This document shows positions 8,431 through 16,635 of a stretch of DNA of 32,000 nucleotides, piece after piece. This DNA is from Nitrospinales bacterium (GTDB lineage Bacteria; Nitrospinota; Nitrospinia; Nitrospinales; VA-1), in NCBI GenBank assembly GCA_965262115.1, contig OZ253496.1, forward strand, positions 1,315,175 to 1,347,174, read 5' to 3'. Made by a program: the position numbers and the translations under genes. Position 1 is the stretch's first letter; the number at the start of each line of letters is the position of its first letter. The notes beneath the pieces were generated by a model. That model saw nothing but the letters and a program-made list of their open reading frames with translations, was not told where the DNA came from and made no database searches.

Positions 8431-8460
8431 TTGCGCAGAATGGCAATGCTCCTGATTAAT

Positions 8461-8674
8461 GAAGGCATGAGTGTCTTTAGGGCCAAAAGAATACTTAATG
8501 TCTAGGGTTCTGAAGAACGATACCTTTTTCAAAGTGTTTACATGATGTTTGAGGGACGGTTTGACAAGCTCTGGGGGGGGGCAGACTCTCCCCTTAACAA
8601 AATGGTGTTCATCGGGCCAGAACCTGAATCCCCAAAGACTGGAAGAAAGCCTGAAGAGCTATACCGTCACCTGA
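8461..8674 (+). pseudogene. Remnant of a CobW/P47K-family C-terminal domain
   Basis: Translation gives EGMSVFRAKRILNV*GSEERYLFQSVYMMFEGRFDKLWGGADSPLNKMVFIG, then after a +1 frameshift NLNPQRLEESLKSYTVT*. This matches the CobW_C pattern (FRAKGILN...YxFQxVHMxFDG...NKLVFIGRNLD). Internal TAG at 8503-8505. Confidence 0.75.
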
Positions 8675-8725: not shown

Positions 8726-9429
8726 ATGGCAGAAGAAGACCGAGAAAAGCCTGGCGGGTCTCAGGAAATTGAACTCAGTGAATCGGAGATCAAAGAACTT
8801 AAACGCCTGGAAGCCAAGAAACAAGCCGAGCAACAAAAGGTGCTTGGCTCTAAAGACAATCTATTTGGGGCGATCCTGACCGATCTGGACCTGGAAGGAC
8901 TAGATTTGCATGACGCCAAAATGGCAAAAGCAAACCTCAACAACACCAATCTGAGTGGGGCCAATTTGAGCAATGCTAATTTCATTGAAGCAGATTTGAC
9001 AGAAGCCAATTTGTCAAAGGCCGACCTGCATGATGCCTATTTTGCCGATGCCCAATTGATTGCGGCAGATTTTTCCGAGGCCGACCTGCGCTGAGCAGAT
9101 TTCAGTTGGGCTGTTTTAAGCGAAGTCCGATTCAATGAAGCAAATCTGCTGGAAGTTGATTTTACCGAAGCGACTCCGGTCGCCTCCGACTTCACCTGGC
9201 CAATGTGACCGGAGCAAATTTCGACCAGACAAACCTGATTGATGTACGTTTGAAGGAGATTGATCTGTCTCAAGCGCTGAACCTTACGCCGGAACAAATC
9301 GAATCCGCCGAAATCGACAAGGCCACCCAACTCCCTCCTTACCTCGAAGTAATATGGGAAGATAGGGATAACTTCAAAGTACAAAAGGTGACTGAGAAAA
9401 AATCCAGGCGGGAAAAAGCAAAAAAATAA
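8726..9429 (+). pseudogene. Pentapeptide-repeat protein, disrupted
   Basis: ORF 8678..9094 (likely start ATG 8726) has A(D/N)LxxANL pentapeptide repeats, hits TGA at 9092-9094, resumes in frame (ADFSWAVLSEVRFNEANLLEVDFTEA), then needs a frameshift near 9190 to join ORF 9205..9429 (ANVTGANFDQTNLIDVRLKEIDL). Confidence 0.75.
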
Positions 9430-9480
9430 ATCGTCTTTGCTTAATCAATATTTTGTTCTAAAGAAACCAGAACCCTTCTA

Positions 9481-9663
9481 TCAACCCCGGCCTTCCTCAA
9501 ACTGAATCTCGCCATCCGCACCCACTGCATATCTTATTTCTATCGGACGGCAACAGACTTCACAATCTTCTATATATTCCTGATGCGGCACCGACAAATC
9601 CAAGAGGACGGAAATGGACTGACCACAATGCGGGCAGTTAAAAAATTGTTCGACCTGCTCCAT
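9481..9663 (+). CDS. CPXCG-motif cysteine-rich small protein
   Basis: 60-aa ORF FFNCPHCGQSISVLLDLSVPHQEYIEDCEVCCRPIEIRYAV, two paired CxxC-type motifs. Confidence 0.8.
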
Positions 9664-9674
9664 GCTCGATTCAG

Positions 9675-10067
9675 TTATTCCTGCATACGAAAATCTTTGG
9701 AGAAATAGGATACCAGGTCTTTCACCGAAAGGATGCCCACTATTTTATCCTCTTCCGTAACCCCCAAATGCCGAATCTTATTTTTATGCATAAATCGGTT
9801 CGCCTCTTCAATAGGCAAATAACAATCCAACGAAAGCACAGGGCTTGTCATGATTTCCGAAATCGGAGTGGCGTCCGGGTTCAAACCTTTACCCAATACT
9901 TTTCGGGTCAGGTCCGTTTCGGTCACAATACCCACATACTCGTCAAATTTTTTCACCAGCAAAGACCCGATATTATTTGCCGTCATAAACAAGGCGGCTT
10001 CCTGAACAGTAGACTCTATGTCTATACTCAATACGGGGGATACCATATAATCGCCGATTTCATCCAT
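9675..10067 (-). CDS. CBS domain-containing protein
   Basis: 130-aa ORF with two CBS motifs: TVQEAALFMTANNIGSLLVKKFDEYVGIVTETDLTRKVLG and PIEEANRFMHKNKIRHLGVTEEDKIVGILSVKDLV. Confidence 0.93.
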   Translation of the reverse strand: MDEIGDYMVSPVLSIDIESTVQEAALFMTANNIGSLLVKKFDEYVGIVTETDLTRKVLGKGLNPDATPISEIMTSPVLSLDCYLPIEEANRFMHKNKIRHLGVTEEDKIVGILSVKDLVSYFSKDFRMQE

Positions 10068-10287
10068 GTTCCTCCTCCTTATTTAAAAGGTGCCATGATG
10101 CCCATAATTCTTGGATGCCGGACAAAGGCCGGGGATTCGCTCTTTTTAAGACCCTTAAAATACCTCAAGACAGGGGCTGAAAACAATAGCAAAAGGCGGA
10201 CCATAACTTCTCGAATTTTAAGGAGTTATTGATTTATACCGTTTTTATTATAAAATCTGCAATTCAACAGGAAACATCCATAGCCCT

Positions 10288-12004: not shown

Positions 12005-13306
12005 ATGGAACCCAAAAACACGATTCACATAAACGCCCAGACCTCAAAACCAAAAGCCATATTGGTGGGGGTTAGCATGCCGGGCATCCGATCCCCGTCC
12101 ACTGAAATTTCACTTGAAGAACTGGAAGGTCTTGCAACCACTGCCAATTATGAGCCGGTGGCCACGTTGACCCAGCACTTAGCAGAGATTAACTGCAAAA
12201 CCTTTTTAGGCAGTGGAAAAGTGGAAGAGATCAGGCAAGCCGTCAAGTACCATTATCCGGAAGCAGTCATTTTTGACGAAGAACTGTCGCCCCGACAAAA
12301 CCGGGAACTGGAAAATATTCTGAAATGCAGGGTCATGGACCGACCCTGGGTCATCCTGGAAATTTTTAGCGACCACGCCCGAACCCGGGAGGCGAAAACC
12401 CAGGTTGAACTGGCAAGGATGAAATATGCCCTTCCCCGTCTTACCGGAATGTGGGGACACCTTTCCCGGCAACGAGGCGGAATTGGCATGAAGGATGTGG
12501 GAGAAACCCAGATCCAACTGGACCGCCGAATGATCCGCAATGAGATCCACAAACTGGAAAAAAAACTCGTTCAAATCGATAAGGAAAAAAAGACCCAGAG
12601 AAAAAACAGGCAGGGAACTTATAAAGTAGCGTTGGTCGGTTACACCAACGCAGGAAAATCCACACTGATGAATTGCCTGACGGGTGCTGACACGCTGGTC
12701 GAGGATAAATTCTTCGCGACCCTGGACGCGACCGTGCGCAAGATAAAGAAAAATTTTCCCTACCCGGTACTGCTCTCAGATACCGTTGGACTGATCAACA
12801 AATTGCCTCATGATCTGGTCGCCTCGTTTAAGAGCACCCTGGACGAAGTGCGTGATGCCGACTTACTGATTCATGTCGTGGACCTCAGTCATCACAAATA
12901 TGCCGAACAAATGCGCACCGCAGATGACCTTCTTCAGCAAATTGGAGTGGACAATATCGATATTCTCACCGTCTTCAATAAAGTTGATGCGTTGTCGAAC
13001 ACCGAAATTCTGGATCGGGTCCTTCATGCTTATCCTTCTGCAATCGGTATTTCCTGCAAAACGGGACAAGGCATCGATTCGCTCCGCCAACAAATGGCCT
13101 GCCATTATGAGAAAAATCTGGTACCGTACCGTCTCGAACTGGAGCACTCCCAGACCATGCTCATTCAGGAAATACGGAAACATGCCCTGGTGTTGAAGGA
13201 GGATTACAACCCCAACGGCATTGCATTAAGCTTACGGCTTTCTCCGGAGGCAAAAGCTAAACTGGAATCCATTTTGAAACGATCTATAAAACCCACACCG
13301 GGATGA
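12005..13306 (+). CDS. hflX: GTPase HflX
   Basis: 433-aa ORF; SQRGGIGMKDVGETQIQLDRRMI (RGGIGxRGPGETQ-like), G1 GYTNAGKSTLMN, G3 DTVG, G4 NKVD. Confidence 0.95.
   Translation: MEPKNTIHINAQTSKPKAILVGVSMPGIRSPSTEISLEELEGLATTANYEPVATLTQHLAEINCKTFLGSGKVEEIRQAVKYHYPEAVIFDEELSPRQNRELENILKCRVMDRPWVILEIFSDHARTREAKTQVELARMKYALPRLTGMWGHLSRQRGGIGMKDVGETQIQLDRRMIRNEIHKLEKKLVQIDKEKKTQRKNRQGTYKVALVGYTNAGKSTLMNCLTGADTLVEDKFFATLDATVRKIKKNFPYPVLLSDTVGLINKLPHDLVASFKSTLDEVRDADLLIHVVDLSHHKYAEQMRTADDLLQQIGVDNIDILTVFNKVDALSNTEILDRVLHAYPSAIGISCKTGQGIDSLRQQMACHYEKNLVPYRLELEHSQTMLIQEIRKHALVLKEDYNPNGIALSLRLSPEAKAKLESILKRSIKPTPG
13249..13294 (+). repeat. Left copy of exact 46-bp direct repeat, 3' end of hflX
   Basis: GGCAAAAGCTAAACTGGAATCCATTTTGAAACGATCTATAAAACCC; identical copy at 14359-14404. 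Confidence 0.95.
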
Positions 13307-13328
13307 CGTGTTAACGCCAATACGATAA

Positions 13329-14192
13329 ATGACAAAAATTAATTGGGCATATTGTCAAAAAAATTCTGATTCAATCCTTGCTTCCGGTCTAAATTTATTA
13401 CAAGAAGACACTATAGAAGACTTCGATAGCGAATTCTCAAAAGACTATGGTAATTATCTCATTTCCGATAAAAGTAAGGAATGGAATTATATTGGAGAAG
13501 CAAAAAACCTTTCTAAAAGATTAAAACAGCACTCCAAAGAAGAGACTTCTACATTCTATAAGAACTATAAAAAGCTTGAAAAAGACTTCTGCAATTATCC
13601 AAAAGGTCTTAAAATTAGTCAATTTGAAGTTAGAACTATTAACACTAAAATAGGACGGAAAGAACTTGAGGAATTTGGAATAGTAAACATTCCTGCTGTT
13701 TTAAATAAATTCCAAAAACGGAAAAGGAATAGATTTAAACAAAAAGTTGATACTGAAATTTGGAACGGAACTCAGAGCAATTTCCATTCAATTCTCGAAC
13801 AAGAAGAAAAGAAATTAATGGGTTTAAAAAGTTATAATTGGTTTCAACCACAAATACCTTCAACTGCTGGACTATATTGGGTTGAAAACAAATCGAAAGG
13901 ACTCATTTATATTGGAGAAAGTTCTAATATCTACGAAAGATATGGTACTCATTCTAGAGATACTTATTTTTCAGCATTAAGACGACATATTGGAGAAAAG
14001 ATTCTTGGTTTCAACTTGCAGACAATTAACAATCGTAAAAGATATTTCTCGAAATCAGAAAATGACGAAATAACTACTTTTTTAAAAGAATGTATTATTA
14101 AACCATTTTCAATCAATTATGGAAGGTATGAGCTTGAAGAATATTTAATACGAAAATACAACCCGTTATTGAATAGAAAAGGAAATAAGTAA
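13329..14192 (+). CDS. Protein with two GIY-YIG nuclease-like domains
   Basis: 287-aa AT-rich ORF. Domain 1: YGNYLISDKSKEWNYIGEAKNLSKRLKQHS. Domain 2: TAGLYWVENKSKGLIYIGESSNIYERYGTHSRDTYFSALRRHIGEKILGF...YELEEYLIRKYNPLLN. Confidence 0.8.
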   Translation: MTKINWAYCQKNSDSILASGLNLLQEDTIEDFDSEFSKDYGNYLISDKSKEWNYIGEAKNLSKRLKQHSKEETSTFYKNYKKLEKDFCNYPKGLKISQFEVRTINTKIGRKELEEFGIVNIPAVLNKFQKRKRNRFKQKVDTEIWNGTQSNFHSILEQEEKKLMGLKSYNWFQPQIPSTAGLYWVENKSKGLIYIGESSNIYERYGTHSRDTYFSALRRHIGEKILGFNLQTINNRKRYFSKSENDEITTFLKECIIKPFSINYGRYELEEYLIRKYNPLLNRKGNK

Positions 14193-14358
14193 AGGCGCTA
14201 ATTGAGTAAACAGCTCCACCAGTAGAAACTGGCGGAGGTCGTTAAGGCGAAGATTGCAGCCCAGCATCAGACCAGTTTGTTTTCTCCAGAGATGGTTGTT
14301 AAGCAGGTGATTGGAGCAAAAGAGGCGTCTGCATCCAGATCGTCCGATTTTCTCCAAG

Positions 14359-14404
14359 GGCAAAAGCTAAACTGGAATCCATTTTGAAACGATCTATAAA
14401 ACCC
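14359..14404 (+). repeat. Right copy of exact 46-bp direct repeat, ectopic hflX 3' end
   Basis: Identical to 13249-13294, spacing 1110 bp; reads through ...SIKPD* in the hflX frame. Confidence 0.95.
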
Positions 14405-14448
14405 GATTGACATACATTCGCATCGCCCCGGGTTTATAAACCTGATCT

Positions 14449-16635
14449 CTAAAGAACAATCAGTTTGGCATGGCTGGCCGAAAGTTTCTTTTTCCCGTGA
14501 GGGGCTTTAAAAAACACTTCCAGATTCAAATTTTCTTCACTACCTGAAAGGTTGATCACAATTCCCGACCCAAACTTAGCGTGCAAAACCTTTGTCCCGA
14601 TAGAATAAGTACCGTCCTTTGTTCCAATCGAATAGGAACCCCCACTTTTTCCCTGATAAGGAAGAGCTCCGCCAAGTGTGCTGATAAATTGAGGTGCGGT
14701 TTCATTGCTGAACCTGCTGGATTCACGGATCATAACTTCATCGGGAATAGAAAGCAGAAAATCTGATGGAAGATAATTAAAAGTAGTGCCATAGATTCTC
14801 CTACGCCTGGCATAAGTGACGAACAGTTTTTTCCGGGCTCGGGTAAAACCTACATAGCACAGCCTTCTATCTTCTTCATATTGCTCAGAGTCCGACATGG
14901 AACTGGCATGCGGGAAGAGTCCATTTTCCATACCCACTACAAATACCGAAGAAAATTCCAACCCCTTACAGGTATGCAGGGTCATTAATGGAAGAACCCC
15001 ACGCTCGTCATCAAGGTTATCCAGATCCGCCACCAGAGAGGCCGAATCCAGAAACTCCTGCAGGGAACCTTCCCCATTCTCAATGGACTGCTCCACTGCG
15101 GAAAATAATTCCTCCAGATTTTCCATACGTCCTTTACTCTCGCGGGTATCCTCTTTTTTCAACATTTCCCCATAACCCGTTCGGTCTACCACCTCTTGCA
15201 GAAGTGCCAGCGGGTCATCCTTCATGGAATCCAGATGATCGATGATTTGCAAGAATTGGGCAATTCTCTTGCCTGCTGCAGGATCTGTCAATTTTTCCTG
15301 CTCGTTCCGGCGCAAACCCTCCTGGAGCGACAATCCCATTTCCCGGCAATACTGCTCAACCTTTTCCATCGAGGTCTTGCCAATTCCCCGGGCAGGAACA
15401 TTGATAATTCGTTTTAAAGAAACTGAATCACTCGGATTTAAAACAACCCGCATGTACGCCAGCACATCCTTGATCTATTTTCTTTCATCAAAACGCAGGC
15501 CTCCTATTACCTGATAGGGCAACCCGGTTCTCATCAACACATCTTCCAATACCCGGGACTGCGCATTGGTACGATAAAGAACGGCCATATCATTAAAGCT
15601 AAAGCCTTCGTCACGGTTCAAAGCCTGGATTTTTTCGCAAACAAATTCCGATTCATCCGTTTCATCTTCAGCCCTGTAGCACAACACTGGAGAACCCACT
15701 TCATTTTTCGTCCACAATGTTTTATCCTTCCGATTTCTGTTTTCTCTCACTACACTTCCTGCCGCATTTAAAATATTTTGTGTGGACCGGTAATTTTCCT
15801 CAAGCTTGATCACCGTTGTTCCGGGGAAATCTTTTTCAAACTTCAAAATATTTTCTATGTTTGCCCCCCCCCTCCAACGATAAATACTCTGGTCATCATC
15901 CACAACAACGCATATGTTATTGTGCGATTGCGACAGCAGACGTACCATCCTGTACTGAACCGCATTGGTATCCTGAAACTCATCAACCAGAATATACTGA
16001 AACCTGTCGTTGTAACGAGCCCTTAAAGAAGGAAACTCCTGAAACAATCTGCTTGTAAAAACCAGCAAATCGTCAAAATCTAAAGCATTATTTTTTTTCA
16101 GGGCAGACTGGTAAACAAGATAAAGACCCGCCGCCTTGAGTTGGTGACCATAAGGCATCGCATCCGGCTGCAAATCTTCGGGCATGAGAAAATCATTTTT
16201 GAATCCGCTGATGTGACCGAGAAGGGTTTTTGGAGGGAATGCGTCAGCACTGATTTCCGCTACCTTCATACACTGCTTGATCAAAGTCAACTGGTCCTGC
16301 GCGTCGTAGACAGCAAAATCATTGGAAAAACCCAGTTCCGAAATATTCATTCTTAGAATTCTCAGACAAAAAGAATGAAAGGTGCTGATCCAGGGGGAAG
16401 CTCCACGAAGGTCCAGCATTTTCCGGACACGTTCCTTCATTTCCCCTGCGGCTTTGTTGGTAAAGGTTATCGCTAGAATACTTTCTGGAGGAATCCCTTT
16501 CTCTTTAATTAAATTGGCAATGCGGCAGGTGATGACACGTGTTTTCCCGGAGCCTGCTCCCGCCACCACCATCAGCGGACCCTCATTATGGCGCACGGCC
16601 TGTAACTGCTGCGGATTCAAATTTTCAAGATCCAC
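14449..16635 (-). pseudogene. UvrD/PcrA-family superfamily I DNA helicase, split by one in-frame TAG
   Basis: ORF 15475..16635 (LNPQQLQAVRHNEGPLMVVAGAGSGKTRVITCRIANLI...ILAITFTNKAAGEM...VVVDDDQSIYRWRGG...GGLRFDERK*) continues in the same frame after TAG (minus-strand codon at 15475-15477) as IKDVLAYMRVVLNPSDSVSLKRIINVPARGIG...MTLHTCKGLEFSSVFVVGMENGLFP...RRLCYVGFTRARKKL. Confidence 0.9.

Follow-up and report, generated by a model that had tools for sequence, protein, structure and literature searches.

A tandem GIY-YIG nuclease gene behind hflX of a Nitrospinales bacterium, probably an isolated integron cassette with an unusual integration scar

A 32-kb stretch of contig OZ253496.1 from a Nitrospinales bacterium (the window, whose numbering is used for all positions below) carries an insert at the 3' end of hflX, the sole open reading frame (ORF) of which encodes a protein with two GIY-YIG nuclease domains. 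Several described systems resemble parts of this locus. In Campbell-type integration at tRNA genes or gene 3' ends, the element carries the 3' end of its target, duplicates the shared block and supplies the tail of the gene. Free-standing GIY-YIG homing endonuclease genes are exemplified by the seg genes of phage T4. Integron cassettes occur in arrays (sedentary chromosomal integrons and CALINs of Bacteroidota and others) and as lone cassettes, or SALINs, which reportedly arise by integrase insertion at a minimal 5'-GWT-3' genomic attG site (10.1101/2022.09.11.507474; Nat Microbiol 2024;9:228). Placed downstream of a resident promoter, SALIN cassettes are reported to be expressed, and neighbouring genomic sites can serve for their excision (10.1101/2022.09.11.507474). 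Integrase insertion is conservative, with no target duplication. The cargo of cassettes is often defensive (PMC12614218). Ssn proteins are single-domain GIY-YIG proteins of ~94 aa (cd10448; >150 aa excluded) associated with 20-50-nt repeats in hundreds of dispersed copies (PMC11893778). Taken as a whole, the insert is best explained as an isolated integron cassette (SALIN) behind hflX, integrated as a circle with an hflX end and carrying a nuclease as cargo, a reading that we consider probable. It is a known kind of mobile gene with an unusual integration scar, and it comes from a previously undescribed family of tandem GIY-YIG cassettes.

The insert is bounded by an exact 46-bp direct repeat, GGCAAAAGCTAAACTGGAATCCATTTTGAAACGATCTATAAAACCC, at 13249-13294 and 14359-14404 (spacing 1110 bp), which extends to 56 bp with 53/56 identity (13239-13294 / 14349-14404). 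An exact 46-mer repeat within 32 kb cannot be due to chance. Relative to the empty sites of seven close Nitrospinaceae relatives (L052-L056, L063-L067, L068, L069), the insertion is a clean 1110 bp. In these relatives, hflX is followed by 25-38 bp and a convergent uvrD without the GIY-YIG gene, and the empty site corresponds to the left flank of the window up to ...AAAACCC fused to the right flank from GRTTGAC. HflX relatives are plentiful in Nitrospinaceae, and the repeat encodes the conserved C-terminus of these proteins. HflX of the window ends in ...SIKPTPG*, and the right copy, read in the same frame, gives ...SIKPD*. The closest HflX relatives end one residue past KP (KPG*, KPD*, NPN*); the ancestral hflX tail is of the short KPD*/KPG* type and the new tail was brought by the insertion. 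These results bear out much of the first-pass annotation of the locus, which had described the exact duplication of the hflX 3' end, a two-domain GIY-YIG gene inserted there with a change of the hflX tail, and the lack of a recombinase in cis. Its "1.1-kb AT-rich insert" is real as an insert of 1110 bp, but only ~13300-14200 is AT-rich (28-33%, ~30% GC), and the 166 bp at 14193-14358 are host-like (~45% GC). The possible misassembly at the repeats that it had raised was checked with an orthologous insert of ~8% divergence in L001 (OZ242182.1), a metagenome-assembled genome (MAG) of Nitrospinales that is an independent complete-chromosome assembly; since the same structure is present there, misassembly is excluded. 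The window's own HflX and GIY-YIG proteins also co-occur on a 12.5-kb contig of the European Nucleotide Archive.

The GIY-YIG protein (287 aa) matches Pfam PF01541 and PF20815. Domain 1 (~aa 36-130) and domain 2 (~aa 175-287) are homologous, being 31% identical to one another, and each has a complete catalytic set of invariant residues. Both adopt GIY-YIG folds in the AlphaFold2 (AF2) model (pLDDT 91), and the best Foldseek matches of the protein in the PDB are R.Eco29kI and the N-terminal domain of UvrC. Beyond the two GIY-YIG domains, no further domain was detected with Pfam, NCBIfam or PHROGs, including the known DNA-binding domains of homing enzymes. More than 547 homologs of near-constant length were found, with one copy per genome and many copies on contigs of ~1 kb. 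Besides Bacteroidota they are spread over many phyla, among them Patescibacteria, Planctomycetota and Bacillota, and one is in a Methanosarcinales MAG. A conserved target gene was rejected, as no target or neighbour gene is conserved across the family loci, and phage or plasmid carriage was rejected on zero matches in the phage, plasmid and viral collections IMG/VR, INPHARED and PLSDB. A literature search on "tandem GIY-YIG" returned no papers, and no description of the family was found in the literature searched.

On the cassette reading, the GIY-YIG protein is cargo and did not itself mobilise the element; cassettes depend on an integrase acting in trans, so the protein is not needed for mobility. 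We infer a role possibly in defence or DNA cutting; PADLOC gave weak matches only. No promoter or terminator was found between hflX and the GIY-YIG ORF, which is probably transcribed by read-through from hflX. Members at 45-52% identity in MAGs of a Methanosarcinales archaeon, Patescibacteria and a Mollicutes bacterium (L039, L028, L009, L008) reflect either very wide transfer or binning contamination.

The evidence for cassettes comes from the family loci. In at least 17 of them a long hairpin begins almost directly behind the stop codon, only a few nt away, with stem sequences that are fully different between loci and complementarity that is kept. The arm score is 13.5 within loci versus 6.4 +/- 1.6 between loci. 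In the covariation analysis, paired cells made up 81.8%, compared with 59.6% after shuffling (0/500) and 25-40% after sliding the partners, and compensatory changes occur in 16 of the 21 pairs. In an alignment of 12 hairpins, the invariant columns are a 5'-terminal AAC and a 3'-terminal GTT. The hairpins also have a spacer that stays unpaired, bulged bases and an apex that varies. A covariance model of the family hairpin (R1, 135 nt) finds the same module between unrelated genes, always on one strand, with eight sites in 8.8 kb in L042 and three to four sites each in L006, L017 and L059-61. Pfam has no family for five of the eight neighbouring cassette ORFs tested. Along the L042 array, all seven consecutive pairs of hairpins show complementarity between the 3' end of the first and the 5' end of its successor, and the ends of the gene's own cassette are linked in the same way at 10/10 positions in L057, 9/9 in L062 and 13/14 in L006. 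Linked ends are a classic consequence of crossover at G/TT, and an identical cassette was found in three different upstream contexts with the breakpoint exactly at G/TT. An IntI-like tyrosine recombinase (ORF 827-2026; tblastn with IntI1, E = 8e-34) borders the L006 array of Mesonia; besides L006, no IntI-like gene was found within +/- 4 kb of the family loci.

Because the hairpins also separate unrelated genes in same-strand arrays, have linked ends and adjoin an IntI-like recombinase in Mesonia, they are, on sequence grounds, attC sites; it is the combination of these features that defines integron cassettes and attC (for attC, PMC12614218). Their cassette nature explains the direct repeats of hairpins in L012 and L014, the tandem-looking junctions of L018 and L049, the 1-kb contigs and the terminal inverted repeats, which were rejected as transposon ends since they are attC linked ends. 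An Rfam search gave no match for the hairpin, and a tRNA or Rfam-type element at the junctions was likewise rejected, none being found. The first-pass annotation had considered an undescribed minimal mobile unit; this is not supported, as the family members have the marks of integron cassettes, namely attC hairpins, array contexts, linked ends and, beside one array, an IntI-like recombinase. What appeared to be a recombinase-free unit would belong to a known system, a family-wide case built from sequence alone. The cassette family would then be large, highly conserved and cross-phylum, with two intact active sites in a tandem GIY-YIG protein and a candidate compact function in defence or DNA cutting.

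Several further features of the family loci were observed. The 3' arms of many Bacteroidota-type hairpins (L010, L018, L042, L057, L059, L061; e.g., L010 4877-5014) share an internal motif, GCTTCGAAATCCCGC, whose partner in the 5' arm is (A)TGCGGG; attC sites are not usually credited with so much conservation of sequence. The L042 hairpin at 8495-8630 overlaps a weak Rfam match to the "DUF2693 RNA" motif (8445-8607, E = 0.33). In L059 (3001-4924), L060 and L061, the GIY-YIG gene is followed by 11 nt, a 267-aa ORF and an 80-aa ORF, both without a Pfam family and with no hairpin between. The arrangement resembles a three-gene cassette, and the upstream neighbours include FokI-cleavage-domain and Mrr-like restriction genes. 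A second cassette leader lies past the downstream hairpin in L018 (1168-1316) and L049 (1064-1240), and L018 also repeats the first 15 nt of the ORF, which may mean that the cassette is present there a second time, in tandem or truncated.

The closest non-orthologous relatives of the window's cassette are L057 (77%) and L062 (74%), and the attC sites of both are recognised by R1. By homology with them, the cassette extends from TTAACGCC (13311) to ...GGAGGTCG (14241), with G/TT at both junctions. The left junction is positionally homologous to the cassette starts of L057, L062 and L059-61 (G then TTAGCACC, G then TTACCGCC). The start GTTAACGCC and the cassette's own R'' GGCGCTAAT are linked at 7/9 positions, versus 9-10 of 9-10 in L057 and L062. 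R' GTT is present (14241-14243), and R'' ends in AAT, not AAC (14200-14202), in both the window and L001; the site is degenerate because of this mutation. No IntI-like match was found in the 32-kb window, where dispersed copies of the hairpin or end motif were also sought and no other copy was found.

The window cassette is classed as a SALIN because it has a single coding sequence plus a putative attC and no integrase in the window. As in SALINs, the G/TT junctions fit the 5'-GWT-3' attG rule, and the insert is co-oriented with and directly downstream of a resident expressed gene; the reported excision of SALINs at nearby genomic sites would give circles with flanking DNA. In contrast to described SALINs, this cassette lies inside a 1110-bp unit with a 46-bp host-gene repeat, a foreign hflX tail and a diverged hflX fragment, its attC is short and lacks AAC, and the host belongs to Nitrospinales, with no integron in the window. 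With cassette arrays the locus shares, through its GIY-YIG homologs, the ORF-attC-ORF-attC order with linked ends, the invariant AAC/GTT hairpins and the IntI-like recombinase beside one array (L006), but the window has one cassette, and its hairpin measures ~55 nt versus ~130 nt in Bacteroidota arrays. The locus would be a natural Nitrospinales example of a cassette outside an integron, as attG-site experiments predict.

The distribution and divergence of the insert were compared with those of the flanking genes. Filled and empty alleles coexist in one 90%-identity HflX cluster, with the filled state scattered among empty relatives. In 8/8 flanking gene segments the window is nearer to empty L052 (2.6-6.4%) than to filled L001 (5.4-9.1%). 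The hflX body is resident, being colinear with the empty-site relatives to 13294, and host-tree site patterns extend to 13250 on the left and appear again from ~14497 on the right, with a small L001/L068-like cluster just past the right copy (p ~0.03). Long co-transferred flanks were rejected on the flat divergence profile; this short right-hand cluster is all that appears. Insert divergence is 0.076 and that of host 4-fold sites 0.154; the insert has 78 substitutions where ~170 are expected. By a simple mutation-selection model, the host lineages would have split about twice as long ago as the insert copies last shared an ancestor. The ORF has a dN/dS of 1.21 versus L001 (host genes 0.13-0.22). 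Substitution rates of 0.058 at A/T sites and 0.114 at G/C sites predict the insert's own GC content, and the insert therefore appears neutral. It seems, therefore, that the composite allele passed from lineage to lineage through homology-dependent replacement in which the exchanged flanks were very short. The alternative, that the insert was precisely lost several times by way of the repeats, agrees less well with the divergence data.

The main rival draws on the same data. A free-standing GIY-YIG homing endonuclease would cut empty hflX-uvrD junctions, double-strand break repair would copy the gene in, and the repeat would be the scar of a first one-sided invasion, an origin that could coexist with cassette ancestry. 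Such homing agrees with a single conserved site that is filled in some genomes and empty in others, in a pattern scattered over the host tree, with an insert that looks younger than the host split, and with very short transferred flanks (<45 bp left, 20-80 bp right). The sporadic occurrence beside a conserved gene, the GIY-YIG fold, the AT-richness and a dN/dS of ~1, as in the degeneration phase of homing genes, are further likenesses, and with its two active sites the protein might be able to break both DNA strands, in the manner of the R.Eco29kI dimer. However, the protein has no recognisable DNA-binding module of known homing enzymes, its family is chromosomal and absent from phage collections, and the members share no target gene or neighbour and stand in attC-bounded arrays with unrelated genes. 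Furthermore, the filled allele retains the intact empty-site sequence (right copy plus flank). No immunity is evident, because empty L068 shares the flank haplotype; the shared flank substitutions were rejected as immunity mutations on the same ground. Nothing requires the GIY-YIG protein to be a homing enzyme, and the homing-like element considered in the first-pass annotation is unlikely.

An Ssn-like or RAYT-like process, in which the GIY-YIG nuclease acts on and disperses its own flanking hairpin repeats (as NTS-ssnA-NTS; Chenal et al. 2025, PMC11893778), has the nearest described arrangement of a GIY-YIG gene bracketed by hairpin-forming repeats with the look of a small mobile element. 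It would suit the hairpin-gene-hairpin layout of L012, L014, L018 and L042 and the multicopy hairpins near the gene. Ssn proteins have a single domain, whereas the window protein has two and is 287 aa long; the hairpins here measure 56-200 nt, and those of 60-200 nt bound unrelated genes, have linked ends and occur beside an IntI-like recombinase. Given also the lack of dispersed hairpin copies in the window, we find this process highly improbable.

The cassette reading leaves the repeat to be accounted for. The two copies differ in the tail (long versus short, with a 6-bp indel) and in the bases upstream of the block, and they appear to stem from two distinct alleles of hflX. Past the block, the left copy reads ACACCGGGATGAC, which is identical in the window and L001 and homologous to the native long tail GCGCCGGGATGAC (...KTAPG*) of another Nitrospinaceae clade; the last five hflX codons (...KPTPG*) would thus be partly derived from a foreign allele. 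The right copy plus flank is a natural short-tail allele, and the empty alleles P0245/P0246 end in ...SPRAKAKLESILKRSIKPD*, in exact agreement with it. The stretch that precedes the right copy, translated in frame (AGDWSKRGVCIQIVR), resembles HflX at the corresponding position, with an anchored score of 13 versus -15.6 +/- 5.8 (0/2000 shuffles). The anchored DNA similarity of 14303-14358 to hflX is marginal (p ~0.03), and free local alignment of 14193-14358 to hflX is not significant, whereas the anchored in-frame test is. The diverged hflX fragment switches abruptly to 100% identity at the 46-bp block; the differing alleles and this jump to identity are as expected from a single crossover (or ends-in event) inside the block. 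The ~53 nt at 14250-14302, for which blastn returned only L001 and no metagenome match was found, are presumably donor flank or a further-decayed hflX fragment. Metagenome scans for this lineage's protein gave no match.

Other GIY-YIG genes with a duplicated host-gene 3' end, a search for which had been suggested at first pass, were absent among ~55 loci. As a family hallmark the repeat was rejected by blastn of the flanks in 51 loci, where the direct repeats of L012, L014, L042 and L018 are element-borne hairpins and not host duplications. Being confined to this lineage, the host-derived repeat is not a family property. The att-type logic of an element carrying its own copy of the target gene 3' end, also put forward at first pass, fits the junction anatomy: as in Campbell-type att islands, the insert has its own copy of the hflX 3' end, the shared block is duplicated and the tail is element-encoded, but there is no element-encoded integrase. 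The insert might instead be what is left of a larger integrative element of the att type, such as a tyrosine-integrase island or prophage, that had targeted the hflX 3' end and lost its interior, keeping attL, attR and one cargo gene. This would explain why the repeat is a conserved gene 3' end and the gene is restored with an altered tail, as is typical of att sites, and why an element-borne diverged hflX fragment precedes the right copy. Against it, no integrase or other island gene is present, the non-hflX content is one cassette with G/TT ends plus ~53 nt, the same 1.1-kb structure occurs in L001, and the relatives and collections searched yielded no larger element akin to it, so that we give this origin very little weight. 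A transposon-like insertion, with a 46-56-bp target-site duplication from widely staggered cuts (one per GIY-YIG domain), would make use of the two nuclease domains and of repeats that are identical within each genome, their sole variable site (A/G, 14401) being concerted in both copies, but it deserves hardly any credence, as the copies come from apparently different alleles, the right copy runs upstream into the diverged hflX fragment, no other family member has a host-derived duplication, and there is no transposase.

Several observations concern the repeat itself. The last 46 bp of hflX are unusually conserved in DNA among Nitrospinaceae alleles (L052-L069), with 0-6 differences, though flanking codons vary; the six bases just upstream of the block are hypervariable (CCGGAG, CCAAGG, CCTGGG, CCGGGG). 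The end of the block pairs with a downstream inverted repeat (TATAAAACCCG / CGGGTTTATA), which spans the original hflX stop and is also present in empty sites. The variable site (14401 / 13291) is A in both window copies and G in both L001 copies, which suggests gene conversion between the copies or heteroduplex repair at integration.

For the proposed cassette, the following history is envisaged. A trans-acting integron integrase would have put the cassette at a minimal G/TT, 4 nt past the stop codon of a long-tail hflX, in a donor whose empty attG site is predicted to read ...CCGGGATGACGTG / TTAAGGCGAAGATTGC.... Imprecise excision would then have produced a ~1.1-kb circle of the cassette plus ~130-180 bp of hflX 3' flank, with the predicted junction GTCCGATTTTCTCCAAGG - 46 bp - ACACCGGGATGACGTGTTAACGCC. 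As the junction anatomy suggests, this circle would have entered a short-tail hflX by one crossover or ends-in event in the conserved 46-bp block, whereby the block would be duplicated, hflX would gain the foreign KPTPG* and the resident end (KPD*) would be displaced downstream. The agent of the crossover was probably host homologous recombination, or the integron integrase in trans. The later movement of the composite allele between close Nitrospinaceae, described above, would follow as a step supported by phylogeny, and the ORF now evolves neutrally beside an attC that has lost the conserved AAC. It is conceivable, though doubtful, that the cassette with its captured hflX end is a self-targeting module, in which the block serves as a portable "att" and the ~1.1-kb circle re-integrates at hflX in related genomes. 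It would do so by host homologous recombination without an integrase of its own, the tandem GIY-YIG nuclease possibly helping by cutting DNA; if true, this would account for the way in which the insert has spread, as if by homing, among lineages of Nitrospinaceae. The flanking repeat points to cassettes that, once excised imprecisely, may carry host homology and integrate site-specifically by recombination, a further route of cassette spread if confirmed.

A number of points weigh against the cassette explanation. R1 has no match on the short hairpin of the window, which is a putative attC by positional homology to L057/L062, and R1-type hairpins are found in only ~17 of the 55 loci. The L006 recombinase matches TIGR02249 (E = 3e-58) with 198 bits, below the NCBIfam cutoff of 265. 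Because integrase insertion is conservative, the 46-bp repeat needs another cause, and the cassette and hflX pieces together leave over the ~53 nt mentioned above. No circle, donor genome or empty attG site (GACGTG then TTAAGGCG) was found, metagenome scans included. Upstream of the block, the six bases are not the same in L001 as in the window, and this holds for both copies; extra mutation or heteroduplex repair is needed to explain it. The estimate of a younger insert hinges on the mutation-selection model, and the right-flank tract reaches only the p value given above. The features of the locus are listed in Table 1.

Table 1. Features of the hflX locus of the window and the basis of their assignment.
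Feature	Position	Strand	Basis or remark
hflX (GTPase HflX), now apparently chimeric	12005..13306	+	Pfam GTP-bdg_N/M, MMR_HSR1, HflX_C
Left exact 46-bp repeat copy (extended 13239-13294)	13249..13294	+	Encodes conserved HflX C-terminus AKAKLESILKRSIKP
Putatively foreign long-type hflX tail ACACCGGGATGAC (T-P-G-stop plus C)	13295..13307	+	Alignment
Left cassette junction GTG/TT; proposed crossover G/TT between 13310 and 13311	13308..13312	+	4 nt past stop codon
Probable integron-type cassette, 931 bp: 18-nt leader TTAACGCCAATACGATAA + ORF + attC	13311..14241	+	AT-rich block; linked ends
Tandem GIY-YIG nuclease gene, 287 aa	13329..14192	+	Pfam; AF2 model
Short degenerate attC-like hairpin	14194..14249	+	DNA fold z = -2.4; position homologous to L057/L062 attC
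Hairpin parts: R'' GGCGCTAAT; stem CTCCACCAGT/ACTGGCGGAG; R' G then TTAAGGCG	14194-14202; 14214-14237; 14241/14242	+	
Unexplained DNA, ~53 nt	14250..14302	.	blastn matches L001 only
Strongly diverged hflX 3' fragment, in frame with right repeat	14303..14358	+	AGDWSKRGVCIQIVRFSPR vs native KEDYNPNGIALSL-RLSPE
Right exact 46-bp repeat copy, now non-coding	14359..14404	+	Then native short tail GATTGAC, stop 14408-14410
Native inverted repeat TATAAAACCCG...CGGGTTTATA between convergent hflX and uvrD	14395..14438	.	Read from sequence

Two further observations were made in the neighbourhood of the insert. The uvrD/pcrA gene (- strand) has one in-frame nonsense change, GAG to TAG, at 15475-15477, which separates ORFs 14449-15465 and 15475-16635. 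In L001 and L052 uvrD is intact (718-742 aa), and the split in the window could reflect a pseudogene, a sequencing error or a read-through codon. The region 9329-10228, upstream of a SpoU-methylase-like gene, is unalignable to L001 (~50% mismatch), while the sequence from 10229 onward is 90-95% identical, which marks a second variable spot.

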